This document shows, piece after piece, positions 4,990 to 37,220 of a stretch of DNA of 64,000 bases; position 1 is the first letter of the stretch; every line of letters begins with the position of its first letter. The stretch lies in contig JAPOYX010000026.1 in assembly GCA_026706345.1 (NCBI GenBank), positions 1,863 through 65,862 on the forward strand. The letters run 5' to 3'. The translations under genes were made by a program, and so were the position numbers. The notes under the pieces are model-generated. The model saw only the letters and a list, made by a program, of their open reading frames with translations. It was not told the DNA's origin and ran no database searches. The stretch is from Gemmatimonadota bacterium (GTDB lineage Bacteria; JAAXHH01).

Positions 4990-7900
4990 TCAGTATTCGT
5001 CCTGGTGTTTTGCGATTTCGAAAATCGCGTTTACGAGTACGTCGTTGCCGTCGAGTTCCGACCTGATGGCATTACGGATCTTACGTTCCTTCAACGTGTT
5101 GCCCCGCCAATCATCCATTTTCGCAGTCCTTATCGTCTTATCCAATGATAAGGCTTTCGCCTCCGTAACATCCTCGGTCGATTCAAACGGGAAGTCGGGT
5201 GTTTGTTGTGCAACTTTCAGACCCTGAACTCCAACCAGGTTGTCGTATAGAGATCTCAATGCCGAGGTGTTTATGGTCGAAGGATAGGACGCGGAGGTAT
5301 CGGATGCTGGATTGTTTACTTTTTTTGCCAGTTCAACCATCTGAGCCAGGTATTCCTTGTATTCCAGTGCTTCCTGCTTGCGCTGGCGAATCAGATCGTC
5401 CAGCAATCGCGACATTTTCTCATAGTACTTTGGATTGACCGGTGCCTCGTCGATGATCAGTCGACGGACGTTATTCTCAATGGTCGAACTTACGGCTTCT
5501 TTGTCCTCTCGCATGGATTCAGGTAGCGCATCGACTGCGTCTTCACCATCTCTGACGATCAGTTCTACCAGAGTCATATCGTCGAACGTGGAAACCTGCT
5601 CACTTTCCTCTGCCCGGATATAGGTGTCGAGCAGGTGACGCATAGCAGGCTCGAACATCTTCATGTCGACAAAGTCTCCGCTGTTAAGCTTGACGACTTT
5701 CCGAGCTTTCTCGAAATGGTCCACTTCGTTTTTTATCTTCGCCGTCTCTGCCTCGGTGTAGCCGGCTTCCTGCATCTCGTTAGCCAGGTTTGCATATGCA
5801 CGCAGGAAAGCCGCCGTAAGTTTATAGAAAGCAATACGTTTCGGTTCGTTTTCTTTGAGTAGTTCAGCATCACTACTTGTCGAACCACAGAAGTACTTGA
5901 TATACGCGAAAGTATCGCGAGGCGGCTCGACAGGTTCCGTCAGCGCCTTGATCGCCTCCCTTGCTTCCTCCAACCGCTCACGACCTTGCTGGAGTCGGTC
6001 TTTTAGCAAGCCTTTTACATCTTCGGCATCGTACCCATCAAATGCTGCACCGGTGTAATCTTTGATCGACTGTTCCAGGGATTTGAAGAGGTCTTTGTAA
6101 TCGATAATATACCCGTATTCCTTGTCCTCACCGTCAAGACGGTTGACCCGGCAGATCGCCTGGAACAACCCATGGTCCTGCATATGCTTGTCGATGTAGA
6201 GACAGGTCGCGGGAGGCGCATCGAAACCGGTCAGCAGTTTGTCCACCACGATCAAGAGTTTCATCTGTCCGGGACTTTCGATGAAGCGCTTCTTGACTTC
6301 CTGCTCGAATCGGTCGGCCTTTTGCATAGCCGAGTCTTCGGGCTCGTTGAAATGATCCGCGAGCATCTTGCGGTAGACTTTGTACTTGAGCAGTCTCTCC
6401 GTGACTCCTTCGCCGGTCTCCTCCCCTTTGATATCCGCGGTGGCCGGCCGGTAGGAGGTGACGATGGCGCATTTCCCCTCCAGGCCATGGTTCTGAAACA
6501 TCTCATAGATGCGACAGGCAGAGTAGATGCTGTCTGAGACGAGCAAAGCGTTGCCTCGGTCGCTCTTAAGGCGGTCGCGTGTCTCCATGTCCAACAGAAT
6601 GTCCGCCACGATCTTCTCTAAACGATCCTGTGAACTCAACACCCTACGCATCGTGCCCCAGCGTTGCTTGAGCTGGGCCTTCGCCACATCACTCAAACCC
6701 TTGGTCTTGACGTCGAACCACAGATCGACCTTGTCCTGAGAGGTGATGTTCTGGTCTATGTCACGCGCCTCGTAGCGCAGATCCAGTACCACGCCATCGT
6801 TCACCGCTTCGTCGTATTTGTAGGTGTGTATGTAAGGTCCGAAGGTCTCAATACTTCGCCTTTTGTCATCTCTAAGCAACGGAGTGCCGGTAAACCCGAT
6901 CAGCACTGCTTCCGGCAGCAGGGAGGTCATTGCCGCGTGGAGTTTCCCGGACTGGGTGCGGTGACACTCGTCCACGAAGACGAAGATATCGCCCTTTGTG
7001 CGGAAATCGTCGGGAAGGTGTTTCCGGATATCTTCGAGGAACGCGTCGATATCGCCTTCCTCCGACGCGCCGAATTTATGGATCAGAGAGCAAACCAACC
7101 ACTCGTTGGCGGTGTTCAGTACATGCACTAGATCGGCACCGCTCTTGGTTCGATGGATATCCTCACTGACGCCCTTGAAGACCTTCTCAATCTGCTCGTC
7201 CAGTTCGGTGCGGTCGGTGATGATAAGGACGTGCCCGCCGCCGTTTAAGTTCTCACGTATCCACTTCGCCAGCCAGACCATGGTCAGACTTTTTCCACTG
7301 CCCTGGGTGTGCCATATGACGCCTCCTTCGCGCCGGTTCACGCGCTCCTGAGCGGCACGTACGCCGAAGTACTGATTGTGACGACATATCTTTTTATTCC
7401 CCGTGTCGAAGACGATGAAGTCGTGTACGATCTCCAATAGCCGCTTCTTGTCGCAAAGTTGACTGAGTTCCTGGAGCAGTGGATTGTCATCAATGGCGTT
7501 TGAGGGTTCTTGTTCCTTCCAACGCAGCCAGTACTTCTCAGGTGTCTCTATCGCGCCGTAACGAAGTCCTTCCGTCTCGTTACCCGCCATAACCAGTTGT
7601 ACGGTCGTAAAGAACGGACGGATGAACTCCTTCTTCTGGCTGTCCAGATTCTGTCGGATGCCCTCGCTTACCGATACAATAGATCGCTTCAATTCCAGCA
7701 CGCCTATGGCGATGCCGTTGACGTACAGTACAAGATCGGGGCGTCGTGTATGCTCACCGACGACTGTCACCTCTTCGGCGATGGCGAAGTCGTTGTTTTC
7801 GGGATTCTCCCAGTCGATTAGCCAGACAGTAATGGTCTGCTCTCCGACCTCCGGCTGAACTTTTACACCGTAGCGGAGCATTTCATACGTCTCGCGGTTG

Positions 7901-30160: not shown

Positions 30161-30340
30161 TATCCCACCGTCGTTCGCTTCTTCGTTCTCGTCCGCGTCA
30201 TCAATATCCCACCGTCGTTCGCTTCTTCGTTCTCGTCCGCGTCATCAATATCCCACCGTCGTTCGCTTCTTCGTTCTCGTCCGCGTCATCAATATCCCAC
30301 CGTCGTTCGCTTCTTCGTTCTCGTCCGCGTCATCAGAATT
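30153..30340. repeat. 44-bp tandem direct repeat: 4 near-perfect copies plus degenerate flanking copies
   Basis: The unit gtcatcaatatcccaccgtcgttcgcttcttcgttctcgtccgc starts at 30153, 30197, 30241 and 30285. A variant copy lies at 30329 and a degenerate copy upstream. It sits in the junction between the two ABC permease genes. Confidence 0.9.
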
Positions 30341-31340
30341 CCACCGTTTCCCTTCGCATGAGCCTCAGCGTGGCGGCCGTGCCGAAGAAGACCATGATGA
30401 ACAGCAGCACCGCGATGGCCGTGGCCTCGCCGATCTTGAACTCGGTGAACATGTCCTGCACCATGAGCGTGCCGATGACGTGCACCTGCGTGGTGGGCGT
30501 CTGGTTGGTGAGGAGCCAGATGGTTTCGAAGGCCTTCATCCCCCCGATGACCATGAAGACGATGGAGATGGACAGCACCTCCCAGATCAGCGGCAGGGTG
30601 ATGGTCCAGAACTGTCGCCATGACGAGGCGCCGTCGATGTCCGCCGCTTCGTAGAGGCTCTGGGGGATGCTCTCCATGGCGGCGAGGAACAGGATCATGT
30701 TGAAGCCGCAGGCGCCCCAGATGGACATGGGGATCAGGGCCCAGTACAGGTTGGACTGCGACAGCCAGGCGAATCCTTCCATGGCCTGCAGCCAGCTTCC
30801 CGCGCTTTCGAGACCGGCGGCGGACAGGATCACGCCCAGTCCCACCAGCGCCGTGTTGATCGGTCCGCCCTGGGGATTGTAGAGGTGCATCCAGAGGAGC
30901 GTGGCGGCCACGGCCCCCAGGATATTCGGGAAGAAGAAGGCGATGCGGAAGAACTTCGATCCCCGTATCTGCCGGCTGATGCACACGGCCAGGAAGAGGG
31001 AGATCGGGATGACGAACAGCGGGATGACGAACATGATGAACAGGTTGTTGTTCAGCGCGATCCAGAACCCGTCGCTTTCGAAGAGCAGGCGGCCGAAGTT
31101 GAGCAGGCCCGTGAACCGCATGTCGGTCAGCCCGTCCCATTCGTTCAGGCTCCAGACGAAGGATTTCACGCTTGGGATAATGACGAACACGGAGTACAGC
31201 AGCAGGGCGGGCGCGATGAAGATGATCCGGTCGGTCCTCCGGAGGAACGGGAGGCCGGCTGCGTGCGCGGTTCCGGCGCGACGGCGGTCCCGGTAGCGCT
31301 TGCAGGTCGTGGCCGACCAGTAGCCCACGGCCAGGGCCAT
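30333..31340 (-). CDS. Carbohydrate ABC transporter permease (MalF-like); it reads in the same open frame as the upstream solute-binding protein
   Basis: TM-rich sequence with EAA motif LYEAADIDGASSWRQFWTITLPL. No stop codon separates it from the solute-binding domain upstream, so the start assigned at MALAVGYW is tentative. Confidence 0.6.
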   Translation of the reverse strand: MALAVGYWSATTCKRYRDRRRAGTAHAAGLPFLRRTDRIIFIAPALLLYSVFVIIPSVKSFVWSLNEWDGLTDMRFTGLLNFGRLLFESDGFWIALNNNLFIMFVIPLFVIPISLFLAVCISRQIRGSKFFRIAFFFPNILGAVAATLLWMHLYNPQGGPINTALVGLGVILSAAGLESAGSWLQAMEGFAWLSQSNLYWALIPMSIWGACGFNMILFLAAMESIPQSLYEAADIDGASSWRQFWTITLPLIWEVLSISIVFMVIGGMKAFETIWLLTNQTPTTQVHVIGTLMVQDMFTEFKIGEATAIAVLLFIMVFFGTAATLRLMRRETVEF

Positions 31341-32672
31341 GAGTCCGATCAGCAGACTGGGCTTCCACACGTGCCGGATGTTGATCTCGTCCGGTGCGAT
31401 GGTCTGCCGCCGTACGACGGCCGCGGCGGCTTCCAGCTCAGCCGCGGCCACCGCGGGCATGGTCTGACCGGTAATCACCCTGAACCGGGCATCGGTCCAG
31501 TACTGTGTCATGGCCGGATAGCCTTCCCCAGGCGGTGTGCCGTAGGTGACGGCCGCGTCCTTCAGCATGGCGGCCAGGTCGGCCATGTCCTCCGACAGGT
31601 TCTCTTCGGATACACCGGCCACGGACACGGGGATGTCGCGCATCCGGGCGAAAAGACCGGCCATGCGCCGGGAGGTCATGAACCGCAGGAACTCGACTCC
31701 GGCAAGCGGGTTGTCGCTATCCTTCATGACGAAATAGTACCCGGAACCGCCGTAGACGGCCGTCGGATCCGCCTTGCCGGTCGGCGCCACCGGCAGGTTG
31801 AAGGACCCCAGGCGGAATCCCTCCGGTATCTTGCCCAGCATCTCGCTCTTGAGCCACGAACCGCAGAAGATCATGGCCGTGTGTCCCAGGAAGAACTCGA
31901 GCTGGGATTCCGTGTGGCTCATGCCCATGGCGCCTGGCTGGAAGTAGTTCAATGCGATCCGCTGCGCGACGGACAGGGCTTCCCCGAATTCGGGATTGTC
32001 GAAACTGCCGGGCACCAGGTTCTTCTGGTCGTCGTACCGGTCAGGCCCGGCGAGGTGGTAGTACGCGTGGTCGATTACGGCCTGCACGTATCCCGGATAC
32101 CGGCCCTGAAAGGCGAGCGGCCACATGCCCGCCGCCCTGATCTCTTCGCAAAGCGCGAAGAACTCCTCCCAGGTGGTGGCGGGCTGCCAGCCGTGTTCCT
32201 CGAAGAGGTTCTTATTGTACCACACGGCGTAGGCCGAGGCCATCAAGGGTACGCTGTAGGTCTTGCCTTCATGGGAATAGCGATCCAGGGTGCCGGGCAG
32301 GAACGATTCGCGCCAGGTGCGGTCGCCCTCCCAGTTGGGCTGATCGAGGAATTCGTCCAGCGGAAGGAGATCGCCGTTGCGGATGAGCGCCCAGTAGTTC
32401 AGCCGGGCATTGGTGACCTCGGGGAAAGACCGTTCCAGGATACGCACCCGCACTTTGTCGTGGATGCGGGGATCTCCGTAGAGGTCGATCTGAACGCCTT
32501 CATGCTCCTGTTCGTAGGTGCGGGCGCATTCGAGGAAGAACTCCAGTCCCTGGCCGCCCTCGAAAAGGGGCACTTCGACGCGGACGGGGGGTTGGTCCCG
32601 CGCTTCGGCAACGGCCGCAACGACCGGTAACGACACGACGATAGCGAGCAGGAGGAAGCGGAACGGGGTCAT
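31341..32672 (-). CDS. ABC transporter extracellular solute-binding protein (family 1, sugar type), N-terminal signal peptide
   Basis: Begins MTPFRFLLLAIVVSLPVVAAVAEA (signal peptide) followed by SBP-like sequence (YGGSGYYFVMKDS etc.). It continues in frame into the permease (one 779-aa ORF in the ORF track). Confidence 0.6.
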
Positions 32673-32878: not shown

Positions 32879-34018
32879 ATGCGTGAGATCAATTTCGGCG
32901 CGGGAAGACCCGATCCGCAGTCTTTTCCCTCGGACGCGCTGGCAGAGGCTGCCGCGAAGGTCATTTCGAGCCGCGGCGCGGAACTGGTGAATTACCCGGA
33001 CGGACGCGGTTATCAACCCTTGCGGGCCATCGCTTCACACCGATTCGAGCGCGGTACGGGACGGGCGGTGCCCTTGGAGGAGATCGTGCTGACGTCCGGA
33101 TCCATGCAGGCACTCCAGCTGATTACGGACGCCTTCACGTCGCCGGGAGACACGATCGTCACGGAATCCTTCACCTACGGCGGATCGCTGAGCGTGTTCC
33201 GAAGCCGGCAGGTGTGCATCGAGCCGGCCCCGATAGACGACCACGGCCTGGTCACCGATGGACTGGAGACGGTGTTGAAACGGCTCGTCGACTCGGGTAC
33301 GCCACCGAAGTTCATCTATACCATACCCACGCATCACAACCCCACGGGCTCCATCCTGCCGCTGGAACGGCGGGAACGCCTGCTCGAACTGGCCAGGAAG
33401 TTCGACACGCTGGTCGTGGACGACCACTGTTACGGAGATCTGGTGTTCCAGTCCGATCCGGTGCCGCCGAACCTGTACCACCTCGACGAAGACGACCGTG
33501 TCGTGTACGTCGCCTCTTTCTCCAAGATCCTCGGACCGGGCGTACGGCAGGGCTACTTCATGGCGCCGGAGGCGCTGCAGCAGCGGATCATGGCGAACAA
33601 GATGGACGGTGGAACCAACGCGCTGGCGAGCATGATCGTGGCCGAATACCTGGGCGATCACCTCTGGGACCACATCCGCGATGTAAATAAAGTCATGAAG
33701 GCGCGCAAGGACGCGTTAGTCGAGTCGCTGGCGACCCACTTCAGTGATCTGGGCGAGGAAGTATGGTGGACGGATCCGCCCGGCGGCATGTTCGTCTGGG
33801 TGCGGATACCGGCGGCTACGGACACCCGAAAAGCGCTGCAACTGGCCGCCGGACGGGGGGTTTACTACAGCCTCGGGCAGTCCTTCAGCGCCGGGAACGA
33901 GGATATTCCCTACCTGCGCATCGCTTTCGGATTCCCCACGATAGAGGATATCCGCGAAGGCGTGCCTATTCTCGCGGATTGCATTAAAGAAGCCCAGGGC
34001 AAGGACCTGGCGGCGTAG
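32879..34018 (+). CDS. PLP-dependent aminotransferase, class I/II
   Basis: 379-aa ORF with HHNPTGS and the PLP-lysine motif SFSKILGPGVRQGY. Confidence 0.8.
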   Translation: MREINFGAGRPDPQSFPSDALAEAAAKVISSRGAELVNYPDGRGYQPLRAIASHRFERGTGRAVPLEEIVLTSGSMQALQLITDAFTSPGDTIVTESFTYGGSLSVFRSRQVCIEPAPIDDHGLVTDGLETVLKRLVDSGTPPKFIYTIPTHHNPTGSILPLERRERLLELARKFDTLVVDDHCYGDLVFQSDPVPPNLYHLDEDDRVVYVASFSKILGPGVRQGYFMAPEALQQRIMANKMDGGTNALASMIVAEYLGDHLWDHIRDVNKVMKARKDALVESLATHFSDLGEEVWWTDPPGGMFVWVRIPAATDTRKALQLAAGRGVYYSLGQSFSAGNEDIPYLRIAFGFPTIEDIREGVPILADCIKEAQGKDLAA

Positions 34019-34029
34019 AAATGGGTGCG

Positions 34030-34323
34030 TTACTCATCGCCGGACACCCTCAGATACCCCTCGACTCTGCCTAGTCGGGTGTTTATGTTGTCGAGACGAT
34101 TGTTCATATCTCGCATTGCGGTACGGATTTCCGTAAAGTCGATTTGCATTTCAGTTCGGAACGCGGCCAACTCGGTCCGTATCTCATTCCTGAATTCCTG
34201 GTCTTCCCGGTCCAGATATGTAAGCGTAGCGATGAACAAGATGCCCAGGGTTACGATGAACATGCCTACGGCAGTTACGATCTGTGCTCCGAAGGTCCAG
34301 TTATCGCGGGACATCACGGTCAT
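34030..34323 (-). CDS. Small single-TM protein with a C-terminal RLGRVEG coiled-coil motif
   Basis: 97 aa, with TM IVTAVGMFIVTLGILFIATL and C-terminus NINTRLGRVEGYLRV. Paralogous to the next gene. Confidence 0.45.
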   Translation of the reverse strand: MTVMSRDNWTFGAQIVTAVGMFIVTLGILFIATLTYLDREDQEFRNEIRTELAAFRTEMQIDFTEIRTAMRDMNNRLDNINTRLGRVEGYLRVSGDE

Positions 34324-34383
34324 CGTCTGATTCCTTCCATTAGTAAAACCCTCGGAACAAGCGTTTTGGCTTCTTCGGATAAC

Positions 34384-34698
34384 TTAACTGTCCATCATCC
34401 TGCCAGTAATTGGGTTCATGCCTAATTGACCTTCAACTCTTTCCAGCCTTCCTTCAACTCTTTCCAGCCTTCCTTCAACTCTTTCCAGCCTTCCCTCAAC
34501 TCTTCCCAGTCTTCCCTCAACTCTTTCCAACCTTTCATTGATTTCGAACAGTACGCTTTTTATTTCATCAATGGATTCACGAAGTGCTGCCATCTCGCTT
34601 TGATTCATCTGCGAGAACTTCCATGACAGCGTAACTACTGCCAAGAGAACGAGGCATGCAGTCGATACTGAACCTATGACCAAAAGAAGGTTGTCCAT
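34384..34698 (-). CDS. Small single-TM protein with five tandem RLERVEG heptads, encoded by a 21-bp in-frame tandem repeat
   Basis: 104 aa, with TM LLLVIGSVSTACLVLLAVVTL and C-terminus RLERVEGRLGRVEGRLERVEGRLERVEGRLERVEGQLG. The DNA at 34429-34535 is a 21-bp unit in 5 copies. Confidence 0.5.
   Translation of the reverse strand: MDNLLLVIGSVSTACLVLLAVVTLSWKFSQMNQSEMAALRESIDEIKSVLFEINERLERVEGRLGRVEGRLERVEGRLERVEGRLERVEGQLGMNPITGRMMDS
34429..34535. repeat. 21-bp in-frame tandem repeat (5 copies) encoding RLERVEG heptads
   Basis: The unit ccttcaactctttccagcctt is repeated with minor variants. It lies inside the 34384-34698 CDS. Confidence 0.9.
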
Positions 34699-34775
34699 AC
34701 TTGATTGGTCGAAATTGGAACCCCAATCTCGTACCGGTCTGGCAACAAAATCGAAAACGGATCCTGCTTCTCCCT

Positions 34776-35486
34776 CTACACCATCTTCCTTGCCCCATTC
34801 TCGTACCTGACCTCGTAATCACCGTCCGGCACCGGCATAGCCCGCATGGCCAGTTCTCCGTCGGTCACCAGGGGATCGGTCTTAAGCAGCAGTTCGTCCA
34901 GCGACTCCTCCGGAGACTTTTCGGTCGTATCCAGCGTGACGAGATGACCGTTGCGCGTCAGGAGCGATCGGTCTACTTCGTCCTCGAAGCGTTTCTTGAG
35001 ATCCGATATGTCCTTTTCGTCGATGATCTGGTACTCGTGCGGGTCGGTGCGCATGCGCTCGCGGACCGCCTCGTCGTCGGCCGTGAGGTGGATCAACACC
35101 ACGTCGGGCAGCCGGGCTTCCAGCACCAGCACCTCGTAGTGCCGCTGATTGTGGTGGACGTAGTTGGGATAGTAGGGATTCCCCTCCACGCTGCCGTACA
35201 CGTCGCAGTAGATCTTTTCCTCGATGTGCCAGCCAGCGATCAGCGTGTGGGGATAGTTGCGGATGACCTCCACGTGGTAGTGCAACTGCATCCGTTGCAG
35301 GCGTTCTTTCACATCGTCGGGGTAGTGGACGTACTGCGCCCGCGAAACGGGACTCAGGGAAGCGTCCGGGATGGTGAAGTGATCGTCGAGATGCGTCCGG
35401 CGCCGCCGCTTCTGGTAATAGGCGTCCAGGAGATCGATGAGGGTGGACTTGCCGGCATACTCGATACCGACGAAAATGGACCGCAT
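34776..35486 (-). CDS. P-loop NTPase (kinase-like ATP-binding protein)
   Basis: Walker A IFVGIEYAGKSTLIDLL at the N-terminus. Start taken at MRSIFVG (35486). Confidence 0.55.
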   Translation of the reverse strand: MRSIFVGIEYAGKSTLIDLLDAYYQKRRRRTHLDDHFTIPDASLSPVSRAQYVHYPDDVKERLQRMQLHYHVEVIRNYPHTLIAGWHIEEKIYCDVYGSVEGNPYYPNYVHHNQRHYEVLVLEARLPDVVLIHLTADDEAVRERMRTDPHEYQIIDEKDISDLKKRFEDEVDRSLLTRNGHLVTLDTTEKSPEESLDELLLKTDPLVTDGELAMRAMPVPDGDYEVRYENGARKMV

Positions 35487-35622
35487 GCTTTGCTCCTTTC
35501 CACGATAGGATTGATTTGGAATCGGGCCCCGTTTGGCTGCTCGACCGCTTTGTCGCGCGGCTGCGTGGCGGGCCACCTGTATTTTGTTTCCGGCCGTGAA
35601 CCGGACGGTCGGTCCTGGCCGC

Positions 35623-36348
35623 CTAACCCTTCAACATCTCGACCCAGGCATCCACAACCGCCTCGACCATGGCTTCCCCATGGACCGCGTTGGCCGTCCA
35701 GCTGTTCCGGTCCTCCTCCTGGCGGCAGTACCACGGCGCGTTCTCGTCCAGGCGGCCCTGATCCACCAGTTCGGGGCGCGTGGCCAGCAGGAAGGAGGTC
35801 TCGTTGTACCCGGCGTGGTCTCCGCCGGCCGGGGGGGACGACGCCGGAAGGACCATGGGATGTACCTCGACCCGGCCGAACCGGCGAGCCTCCCTGGACA
35901 TCCTGGCATCCGCCCACCATCCCCGCGGTTTGCCTTCGGCCAGGACCATTTCGAAGGAAAGCTCCGCCGCGGCCTTCTTGAAGGCCAGCGCCAGCGGCGC
36001 CTCCATGCCCTGGTGCATGATCATCACGTAGATACGCCGGAAGCCCATCTCCAGGAAGTTGCGCAGGATCGACTTCACGTACGACCCGAAGGATGCGTAG
36101 TCCGGATCGATGGTGCCGTCTTCGGGGCCGCCGAGGGCGTAACCGGTTGGACCGAAATCGAAGGGCGGCGAGATGACTACGTCGAGACGCTCCGCGACCC
36201 GCGCGCAGATCTCCTCCACGATGATCGTATCGTGACCGATGGCCATGTGGGGACCGTGGGTCTCGATGCAGCCGGCGGGAACCAGCAGCGGGTCGCCCCG
36301 TTCCACCGCCTCGCGCAACTGGTGGGGACGCATGAGTTTCATGTACAT
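35623..36348 (-). CDS. Creatininase (creatinine amidohydrolase) family protein
   Basis: Conserved creatininase-fold motifs LVPAGCIETHGPHMAIGHD, GGPEDG and MIMHQG. Start taken at an internal Met (36348) because the longer ORF would overlap the upstream PhyH gene. Confidence 0.7.
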   Translation of the reverse strand: MYMKLMRPHQLREAVERGDPLLVPAGCIETHGPHMAIGHDTIIVEEICARVAERLDVVISPPFDFGPTGYALGGPEDGTIDPDYASFGSYVKSILRNFLEMGFRRIYVMIMHQGMEAPLALAFKKAAAELSFEMVLAEGKPRGWWADARMSREARRFGRVEVHPMVLPASSPPAGGDHAGYNETSFLLATRPELVDQGRLDENAPWYCRQEEDRNSWTANAVHGEAMVEAVVDAWVEMLKG

Positions 36349-36371
36349 GGGATTCTGTCCGGCGGGGTGGA

Positions 36372-37220
36372 TCAGGCTTCTATGGTATGCGTGTGCTGCG
36401 CCACGTCGAGTCCGTGCCGATCTGCCCATCCCCGGATGGCCCAGTCGATACCGTCGGGCGCGTCGCGTCCTTCGGAATCCACGGTGCCTCCCAGCAACTG
36501 GCGTCCGATGTCGTCGGTCCTCTTGAGCAGATTGGCATCGGGCTGCGGCGCGTCGTTGTAGAACCGCATGTAGTGATCGGGCTTGATCCAACGGTAGTGA
36601 TAGCCGTAGATGACGACCTTGGCGATCTGCTTCGTGAAATTCAATCCGGCCGCATGGTAGGTCCGGTTTTCGAAAAGGAAAGCGTCGCCTGCCCGAAGGA
36701 CCGGCTGCACGTATTCGTCCGGATGGACGTGCCCCTTTCGTATCGGCAGCGCGGACTTCATGTTGTTGCTGCCTTGCACGAACATGGTCGCCCCGGTGTC
36801 CGGGCCGGGGAAATCCGTCAGGCAATAGCCGATCTTGAGGCCGACGAACGGAAGCAACACGTGGCCGACGTCCAGTGAAACGCCCACGTCGCGGTGCCAG
36901 TTGACCTGGTCGGTATCCCCGGGCGCCTCCGGGTGCTTGTAGATGAGCGCGGTGTTCGTGATATGGATATTGAAGCCGAGGAGGGCGACGATCAGCGGGA
37001 CCGTGCGCTCGTTCGTTACGAGGTCCAGGAAGGGCTGTTCCTGCACGAGACCGGGACGGCGATGGGCGTAGAAGTCGGGGTACTCGAACCCGTCCATGAG
37101 CCGGTCGCCCGTCTCCGTCAGCGCTTCGATCTGAGCAGGATCCAGCGCGCCCTGGACGATCAGGTAGCCGTCCTCTTCAAAGGAACGTCGTTGGGACTCG
37201 GTCAGAGGCGTGGGATGCAT
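36372..37220 (-). CDS. Phytanoyl-CoA dioxygenase (PhyH) family oxygenase
   Basis: 282-aa ORF with a PhyH-like HxD...H pattern (NWHRDVG ... RTYHAAGLN). Confidence 0.7.
   Translation of the reverse strand: MHPTPLTESQRRSFEEDGYLIVQGALDPAQIEALTETGDRLMDGFEYPDFYAHRRPGLVQEQPFLDLVTNERTVPLIVALLGFNIHITNTALIYKHPEAPGDTDQVNWHRDVGVSLDVGHVLLPFVGLKIGYCLTDFPGPDTGATMFVQGSNNMKSALPIRKGHVHPDEYVQPVLRAGDAFLFENRTYHAAGLNFTKQIAKVVIYGYHYRWIKPDHYMRFYNDAPQPDANLLKRTDDIGRQLLGGTVDSEGRDAPDGIDWAIRGWADRHGLDVAQHTHTIEA

Follow-up and report, generated by a model that had tools for sequence, protein, structure and literature searches.

Two adjacent genes on the minus strand of a 64,000-nucleotide stretch of DNA from a Gemmatimonadota bacterium (assembly GCA_026706345.1, contig JAPOYX010000026.1; the whole stretch is hereafter called the window) encode small membrane proteins with a coiled-coil tail that contains the heptad RLxRVEG. 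In gene 1 a 21-bp (base pair) tandem array repeats this heptad five times, and the number of heptads varies between lineages, with 1, 2, 3 or 5 in the orthologues of this syntenic site. Both proteins belong to an uncharacterised superfamily that is confined to a single clade of bacteria associated with sponges and corals. We suggest, as the reading we prefer but hold with clear reserve, that they are small bitopic inner-membrane proteins with the N-terminus outside and the C-terminus inside (N-out/C-in), forming parallel cytoplasmic coiled coils of evolvable length. The features of the two genes are as follows; TM stands for transmembrane and aa for amino acids.

34384..34698, minus strand: gene 1, coding for a 104-aa bitopic coiled-coil protein (MDNLLLVIGSVSTACLV...RLERVEGQLGMNPITGRMMDS), from the list of open reading frames (ORFs)
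34621..34692, minus strand: TM segment of gene 1, residues 3-26, an uncharged hydrophobic span
34420..34614, minus strand: coiled-coil stalk of gene 1, residues 29-93, in an unbroken heptad register
34429..34533, minus strand: five in-frame 21-bp tandem units of gene 1, coding for RLERVEG, RLGRVEG and three times RLERVEG
34030..34323, minus strand: gene 2, coding for a 97-aa bitopic coiled-coil protein, from the ORF list and identical to P0121
34213..34302, minus strand: hydrophobic/TM segment of gene 2, residues 8-37, with a conserved SRDNW motif just before it
34045..34212, minus strand: coiled-coil stalk of gene 2, residues 38-93, with a register shift near residues 56-60
34057..34077, minus strand: C-terminal heptad RLGRVEG of gene 2, invariant, within the family motif NTRLGRVEGxLR

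The 21-bp array and heptad number

Tandem Repeats Finder reports the array at 34430-34534 with a period of 21, 5.0 copies, 92% matches and 0 indels. The 21-mer AGGCTGGAAAGAGTTGAAGGA has five head-to-tail copies (at most 3 mismatches), compared with 0.00 in 100 dinucleotide-preserving shuffles. An earlier reading of the same DNA, made from its letters alone and hereafter called the original prediction, had claimed that the motif is amplified to five contiguous heptads by near-perfect 21-bp repeats, and the repeat finder, the shuffles and the in-frame units bear this out. Elsewhere in the window RLGRVEG is found only at the C-terminus of gene 2. The last three units of gene 1 are identical or one base apart in DNA, and we therefore consider the growth of the repeat to be recent. 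Acting on the 21-bp unit, slipped-strand mispairing or unequal recombination would have taken the gene 1 tip from the one or two heptads of relatives to five, adding about 3 nm (three extra heptads) without breaking the register.

Orthologues of gene 1 at the same syntenic site have one heptad in locus L061, two in the L003 type, L059 and L063, three in L016 and L065, and five in the window and L001. L063, with a synonymous divergence (dS) of 0.29 the nearest of the gene 1 relatives compared, is one of those with two. The tract had been proposed to be possibly variable in copy number. This holds between lineages; within the lineage itself, the window and L001, the only assemblies of it that cover the array, are alike in having five units. 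A JGI metagenome scan for relatives of gene 1 gave a single locus. The original prediction named two outcomes that would count against it, a lack of length variation and clear homology to a characterised family. Neither was found, as the heptad number varies and no characterised family matched.

In three scaffolds, runs of N start inside gene 1 (L010:3055-3310, L011:1527-2148 and L012:3260-3517), and the run in L011 starts exactly at the first heptad repeat. A further contig breaks off 22 bp upstream of gene 2 (L002:1-23). These assembly breaks at the array in four assemblies would fit heterogeneity of the repeat or of strains in the samples.

Coding evidence and base composition

Both ORFs are genuine genes under purifying selection, and the constraint is weaker on gene 1. 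We regard them as protein-coding because of their homologues and orthologues, their ratios of non-synonymous to synonymous substitution rates (dN/dS), and the fact that all length differences among orthologues of either gene are in frame. Gene 2 is 100% identical to the NCBI entry 'hypothetical protein OXG98_03145, Gemmatimonadetes bacterium' (P0121) and has about 158 homologues. Its dN/dS against syntenic orthologues is 0.06-0.12, and that of the flanking aminotransferase gene is 0.10. Many relatives have orthologous ORFs of gene 1, namely P0001-P0004 and loci L003, L005, L009, L014, L016, L059, L061, L063 and L065. Measured against orthologues over its non-repeat first 54 codons, gene 1 has a dN/dS of 0.27-0.36. 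The ratio is well below 1 in all comparisons, including those with L063 and L059, which share the deletion of a partner gene described below.

The DNA of gene 1 is also present in a second assembly (L001). It should be noted that gene finders left gene 1 uncalled in the public assemblies of its own strain and of several close relatives (L001, L003, L006 and L009). There is thus a systematic annotation gap for small, repeat-containing ORFs with a low GC content at third codon positions (GC3), despite the conservation of gene 1 and the purifying selection on it.

The original prediction of a lower local GC (guanine plus cytosine) content was confirmed, with 45-51% vs about 62% in the flanks overall and, by position, 0.45-0.52 over 34000-34750 vs 0.60-0.69 on both sides. 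GC3 is 0.43 in gene 1 and 0.65 in gene 2, compared with 0.78-0.87 in five neighbouring genes. Across the family (loci L014-L053) the median GC3 is 0.64 with a range of 0.46-0.73, and neighbouring long genes are at about 0.8-0.9. Because GC3 is consistently low in the family, we attribute the low GC to the family as a whole and do not read it as a mark of recent transfer at this site. As it persists in stably syntenic orthologues, the atypical codon usage is maintained and not ameliorated.

Protein architecture and predicted topology

In brief, each protein has a short N-terminal tail (2 residues in gene 1, 7 in gene 2) followed by a TM segment and a long stalk. The hydrophobic spans and the heptad periodicity agree with the claim that two adjacent small genes each encode a TM helix and a coiled-coil-like tail containing RLGRVEG. 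The TM segment of gene 1 holds a conserved small/polar motif, IGSVSTACLV, with invariant columns I8-V17 (alignment A3). In the C-terminal motif of the gene 2 family the invariant alignment columns are N81-G89, L91 and R92.

The uncharged span of gene 2 is unusually long, with 30 residues, 7 more than in 83-aa paralogues. An internal duplication, MFIVTL/LFIATL, is found in this span (34223-34262, residues 21-34; DNA repeat D3, with a 24-nt spacing).

Over residues 29-93 of gene 1, 17 of the 19 a/d positions are hydrophobic (L, I, V, M or F), vs 6.5% elsewhere, and 0 of 2000 shuffles match this. The register places L, I or M at a, V, I or L at d, R at g and E at e, and it is kept perfectly through all five units. 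In gene 2, 9 of 9 a/d positions in the C-terminal 34 residues are hydrophobic, and there is one stutter upstream of these. At this register shift gene 2 has 11 residues inserted in comparison with 86-aa orthologues, which are themselves in a single register. AlphaFold2, run with the gene 2 family alignment, gave one uninterrupted helix over residues 3-95 with a mean predicted local distance difference test score (pLDDT) of 76.5. The sequences thus show a/d periodicity over at least four heptads in a predicted helix, the canonical sign of a coiled coil. A coiled-coil prediction had been proposed as a check, and both the a/d counts and the single-helix model of gene 2 answer it positively. Together with the hydrophobic spans they support the architecture of a membrane-anchored coiled-coil stalk, one of the possibilities that had been raised. 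The same predicted continuous helix, and the lack of a basic n-region, speak against another of these, a signalling peptide.

Within RLxRVEG the L is at a, the V at d, the R at g and the E at e. Oligomers with parallel chains and g-e' salt bridges would fit this layout.

We predict an N-out/C-in topology for both proteins. The N-tails of subfamily representatives have 0-8 residues, and in 13 of 14 representatives the lysines and arginines (K+R) in the 15 residues after the TM segment exceed those before it. By the positive-inside rule, this points to a cytoplasmic stalk. We also considered the opposite, periplasmic orientation (N-in/C-out), with the stalk as a spacer or divisome-like coiled coil, as in Lpp, FtsB/FtsL or i-spanin, and with heptad number tuning an envelope distance. 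An N-terminal TM segment followed by a coiled coil is also the layout of FtsB/FtsL-type proteins, and length changes by whole heptads or hendecads would suit a ruler. In addition, two members of the gene 2 family have a weak FtsL_2 match (E 5.4e-5), and the N-tail of some subfamilies holds 2-3 K/R. However, the charge excess on the C-terminal side of the TM segment in 13 of the 14 representatives argues against it. Neither a lipobox, a peptidoglycan-binding feature or a C-terminal Lys feature nor a consistent family match was found, and the loci inspected have no divisome or envelope genes nearby. We therefore consider a periplasmic stalk unlikely.

Relation of the two genes and turnover of the site

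The original prediction described the genes as tandem paralogues. This does not hold in that form: they belong to different subfamilies and are adjacent only after the loss of a 90-aa gene that lay between them. Similarity between the two (BLASTP 35% over 72 aa, E 3e-9; hhalign 93% probability over 34 columns) is restricted to the coiled-coil part, and the TM segments do not align. In most relatives the 90-aa gene, here called the middle gene, starts within the stop region of gene 1, between genes 1 and 2, and this overlap suggests translational coupling of gene 1 and the middle gene. In the window only the following is left of it.

34355..34383, minus strand: remnant of the middle gene, 29 bp of its 5' end, from DNA alignment A2 and translation

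The same 29-bp remnant is common to the window, L059 and L063. The intact gene encodes a soluble protein (VKLTEEAKTLVLKALQTGDGLILTGQTFSGWF...; L005:5704-5976 and L061:4001-4273) that has only 11 homologues, all of the same lineage and without exception at this syntenic site. No Pfam family matches it, and its AlphaFold2 model is of low confidence, with a pLDDT of 49.7.

The syntenic order is PhyH, creatininase, a 236-aa P-loop protein, the site of genes 1 and 2, and a convergent aminotransferase. Between the P-loop gene and the aminotransferase gene at least 7 gene contents are found among related genomes (L003-L019, L059-L063), including these:

L004, L007: gene 1 codon 32 to the end of the middle gene deleted
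L017: gene 1 fused in frame to the middle gene
L013, L018, L019: gene 2 only
L015: another paralogue replacing gene 1 (L015:4650-4856)
L059: gene 1 only
L063: gene 1 and two unrelated small genes, of 89 aa and 75 aa (C-tail-anchored coiled-coil), L063:3458-3951
L060-L062: gene 1 and the middle gene, without gene 2

Small genes are gained and lost here often enough to make the site a hotspot, and the more distant syntenic loci have no gene 2. Based on the site variants and the middle-gene remnant, we conclude that genes 1 and 2 became neighbours by deletion and not by recent duplication. We saw no integrase at the site, and no flanking inverted or direct repeats that would suggest a mobile element.

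With its partner deleted in the window, gene 1 might be a decaying or functionless ORF in which loss of the partner released constraint and the repeat grew by neutral slippage. A dN/dS of about 0.3, or five times the value in gene 2, would fit this, as would the low GC3, the missing calls in public annotations, and the deletion, truncation or fusion of gene 1 in L004/L007, L013 and L017-L019. However, the ORF is intact, the register runs without fault through the five units, and dN/dS stays well below 1 even against the two relatives that share the partner deletion. We find decay improbable.

The turnover also bears on the idea of a small membrane-active toxin, or a holin-like or viroporin-like oligomeric pore in which the coiled coil would hold a bundle of TM segments together, carried as an accessory cassette with the 90-aa protein as its modulator. 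Such a protein could be expected among low-GC3, multi-copy genes in a gain/loss hotspot, with a gene that overlaps that of its partner in relatives. The highly conserved, small/polar-rich TM segments (GSVSTAC; G12, A13, Q14, A18, G27) would also suit it, and there are weak, non-significant matches to NavAb S6 plus its C-terminal coiled coil (E about 0.08). Against this, no holin, toxin or defence model matched, purifying selection on gene 2 is as strong as on a housekeeping enzyme, orthologues are stably syntenic across a dS of about 0.5-0.7, and the site has no integrase, mobile-element signature or flanking repeats. A toxin or pore is thus a doubtful explanation.

The surroundings of the genes include the following features.

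34776-35486, minus strand: 236-aa P-loop gene
32879-34018, plus strand: convergent aminotransferase gene
33994..34010, minus strand: terminator-like hairpin, 20 nt past the gene 2 stop and within the 3' end of the convergent aminotransferase gene, a consensus match only

A promoter scan gave no sigma-70-like site, and Rfam gave no match across 33500-35500. The 779-aa ORF at 30333-32672 (minus strand) encodes a single polypeptide in which an extracellular solute-binding domain (SBP_bac_1/SBP_bac_8) is fused to an ABC (ATP-binding cassette) permease domain (BPD_transp_1), and it is kept in all syntenic loci (779-808 aa). The 400-aa ORF at 35623-36825 (minus strand) is over-extended; based on public calls and Pfam, the creatininase has about 241 aa and corresponds to residues 165-397.

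Comparison with known families

Scans of the curated libraries Pfam, NCBIfam, PADLOC and PHROGs gave only sub-threshold matches of coiled-coil or TM composition, inconsistent between family members. Searches of the PDB with both family profiles gave nothing significant; the strongest matches, at E 9e-4 or weaker, were to viral fusion heptad repeats and to NavAb S6 plus its coiled coil.

Several short coiled-coil families with heptads of the RLxxLE/RVE type scored below their cut-offs, and in the repeat region of gene 1 only: XhlA (PF10779; 19 bits vs 34.7), FlaC_arch (PF05377; 20.6 bits vs 27.8) and DUF7310 (PF23991; 24.2 bits vs 40). They differ in domain order, context and taxonomy, and the window has no lysis cassette as would be expected for XhlA. 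For PspB/PspC, TIGR02978 gave 17.9 and 16.3 bits against a cut-off of 104. Among the anti-phage defence models of PADLOC only JetC and LmuB matched, in the coiled-coil region (E 4.5e-4 or weaker). We also read the sequences for a lipobox ([LVI][ASTVI][GAS]C) preceded by a basic n-region and rejected a lipoprotein, as there is no basic n-region. In gene 1, V-S-T-A-C15 has S at -3 and no preceding K/R, and the hydrophobic stretch runs past the Cys; gene 2 has no Cys.

Lpp, FtsB/FtsL and PspB-type proteins are small envelope proteins with parallel coiled coils, in which whole-heptad changes alter the length and keep the fold. Genes 1 and 2 differ from these in having no lipobox or significant model match and a predicted cytoplasmic orientation.

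DUF2730 (PF10805) may be counted among the closest analogues. Gene 1 scores 16.7 bits (E 0.008) vs a cut-off of 24.9, aligning with positions 11-95 of 102. Gene 2 does not match, and DUF2730 is absent among the 25 most-matched families listed in a Pfam scan of 19 gene 2 family members. The prototype, Mu gp25 'releasin', has 99 aa, an N-out/C-in topology and a 73-aa cytoplasmic domain, and DUF2730 genes lie at most 5 genes from an endolysin gene in transposable phages (PMC9239132). The likeness is thus in size, in predicted topology and in a charged helical domain of about 70 aa. In contrast, genes 1 and 2 are not in a transposable phage but have aminotransferase, ABC transporter, creatininase and PhyH genes as neighbours.

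A phage relationship had been among the original suggestions. No viral relatives were found in 2.9 million viral contigs (two IMG/VR scans) or in 50,697 phage genomes (INPHARED, tblastn), and all family contexts inspected are chromosomal and metabolic, so we do not uphold it. A specific form of this suggestion is a phage-derived lysis accessory similar to gp25 or XhlA. Apart from the size and predicted topology of gp25 (PMC9239132), it could draw on sub-threshold full-length matches to DUF2730 (16.7 bits), XhlA (19 bits) and phrog_1009 (E 9e-8), and on one paralogous cluster directly downstream of an Amidase_2 plus PG_binding_1 gene. All scores are nevertheless under the curated cut-offs (24.9 and 34.7 bits) and typical of coiled-coil composition, no phage genes lie near the loci inspected, and the association with an endolysin gene that marks DUF2730 is not seen here. 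A lysis accessory is therefore very unlikely and already largely refuted.

The cluster just mentioned, with two paralogous genes on the same strand as the Amidase_2 plus PG_binding_1 gene, is located at L054:4926-6631. Among the contexts seen, this one alone hints at a connection with the cell wall or with lysis, and its neighbours are housekeeping genes (citrate synthase, prolyl-tRNA synthetase).

The best evolutionary analogue is the Bdr family of Borrelia. These are inner-membrane proteins of 6 subfamilies in about 18 copies (PMC2525819), and the bdrT gene of one strain has about 9 repeats where another strain has about 6 (PMC3303823). Both systems consist of lineage-restricted, multi-copy, small inner-membrane paralogues with a central region of in-frame tandem repeats, whose number varies among paralogues and among otherwise near-identical orthologues. 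No Bdr model is among the Pfam matches listed for gene 1, gene 2 or family members. In Bdr proteins the membrane anchor is a hydrophobic segment at the C-terminus, and the genes are carried on plasmids and cp32 prophages. Genes 1 and 2 are instead chromosomal and encode an N-terminal TM segment, and the resemblance is architectural and evolutionary only. A literature search for comparable heptad-variable membrane proteins in symbionts found none.

The wider superfamily

A scan of one genome per species gave 41 loci, all of them in sponge or coral metagenome-assembled genomes labelled Gemmatimonadetes or Ca. Latescibacterota, with 4-6 dispersed family loci per genome. The loci are clusters of 1-4 small genes for coiled-coil proteins with an N-terminal TM segment. 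They form at least 5 subfamilies, and most have an RLGRVEG-like tip. A profile search against 1.84 billion representative proteins gave about 10 full-length relatives; the rest match the coiled coils of large repeat proteins.

Within each subfamily orthologues differ by whole repeats, including TRIDRVE. Hendecads of LEDKMDKRFVA are found in orthologues of 93-144 aa, and in L026:5849-6009 Tandem Repeats Finder reports them as 33 bp x 4.9. Orthologues with three to five RRFEAVD repeats have 88-102 aa (21 bp x 5.7 at L022:4745-4863), and those with LREDIGx have 67-97 aa. In-frame arrays of 21 bp x 2-2.6, again with orthologues of 67-97 aa, are located at L046:2422-2507 and 5086-5128. Members of the gene 2 family have 79-102 aa and differ by indels of 4, 7, 11, 14 and 18 residues.

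The original prediction had proposed a database search for the RLERVEG heptad, and RLxRVEG was indeed found in tandem in unrelated, uncharacterised small proteins of many phyla, whose source names are automatic labels of a generic kind. Three to eight tandem copies of RL[EDG]RVEG are present, for example, in P0005, P0008, P0009, P0026 (Calothrix) and P0046 (Hymenobacter). Most of these proteins have no N-terminal TM segment and share nothing else with genes 1 and 2, and the similarity is probably low-complexity or convergent.

A model for the membrane-anchored stalks

In the reading we prefer, each protein would be roughly one continuous alpha-helix about 14 nm long, with the N-tail of 2-7 residues outside, residues 3-26 (gene 1) or 8-37 (gene 2) crossing the membrane, and the remainder in the cytoplasm. 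As all chains would be anchored N-terminally in one membrane, a parallel arrangement is expected, with homo- or hetero-oligomers that may be stabilised by g-e' salt bridges. The conserved module at the C-terminal tip throughout the superfamily would be RLGRVEG, and in-frame indels of 4, 7 or 11 residues and their multiples change the length of the stalk between membrane and tip. We infer that the most likely role is that of a membrane-tethered oligomeric scaffold or adaptor, whose tip mediates interaction, in relatives together with the coupled 90-aa partner. Stalk length would then be only weakly constrained.

Several points weigh against this model. Topology, oligomeric state and interaction are all inferred. 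The K+R margin of gene 2 is small (1 vs 3) and its C-flank is net acidic. The exact gene 1 product has no record as a called protein in public assemblies. Each of the three site genes is missing in some relative, so none of them is essential. Gene 1 may even be on the way to loss, as its partner is gone, its GC3 is very atypical and its constraint is relaxed.

Significance

The family is uncharacterised but architecturally ordinary, and the immediate impact is modest. The analysis defines an unannotated, Pfam-less superfamily that has expanded in uncultured symbionts of sponges and corals and whose members evolve mainly by gain and loss of whole heptads or hendecads. For coiled-coil specialists it provides a natural series of stalk lengths, in which indels of 4, 7 and 11 residues preserve or shift the register. 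For symbiosis genomics it adds a lineage-specific family and a hotspot of small-gene turnover, largely missed by automatic annotation.

A more speculative extension, to which we give little credence at present, is that the superfamily forms a dedicated lineage-specific system. About 10 genes per genome, in at least 5 subfamilies and clustered by 2-4, would encode membrane-tethered coiled-coil rulers, with lengths tuned by 21-bp and 33-bp repeats, that co-assemble via the RLGRVEG tip. If this is true, the length variation would be adaptive and not neutral, and in these sponge and coral symbionts the assembly would define a distance, or provide a scaffold, on the cytoplasmic side of the membrane.

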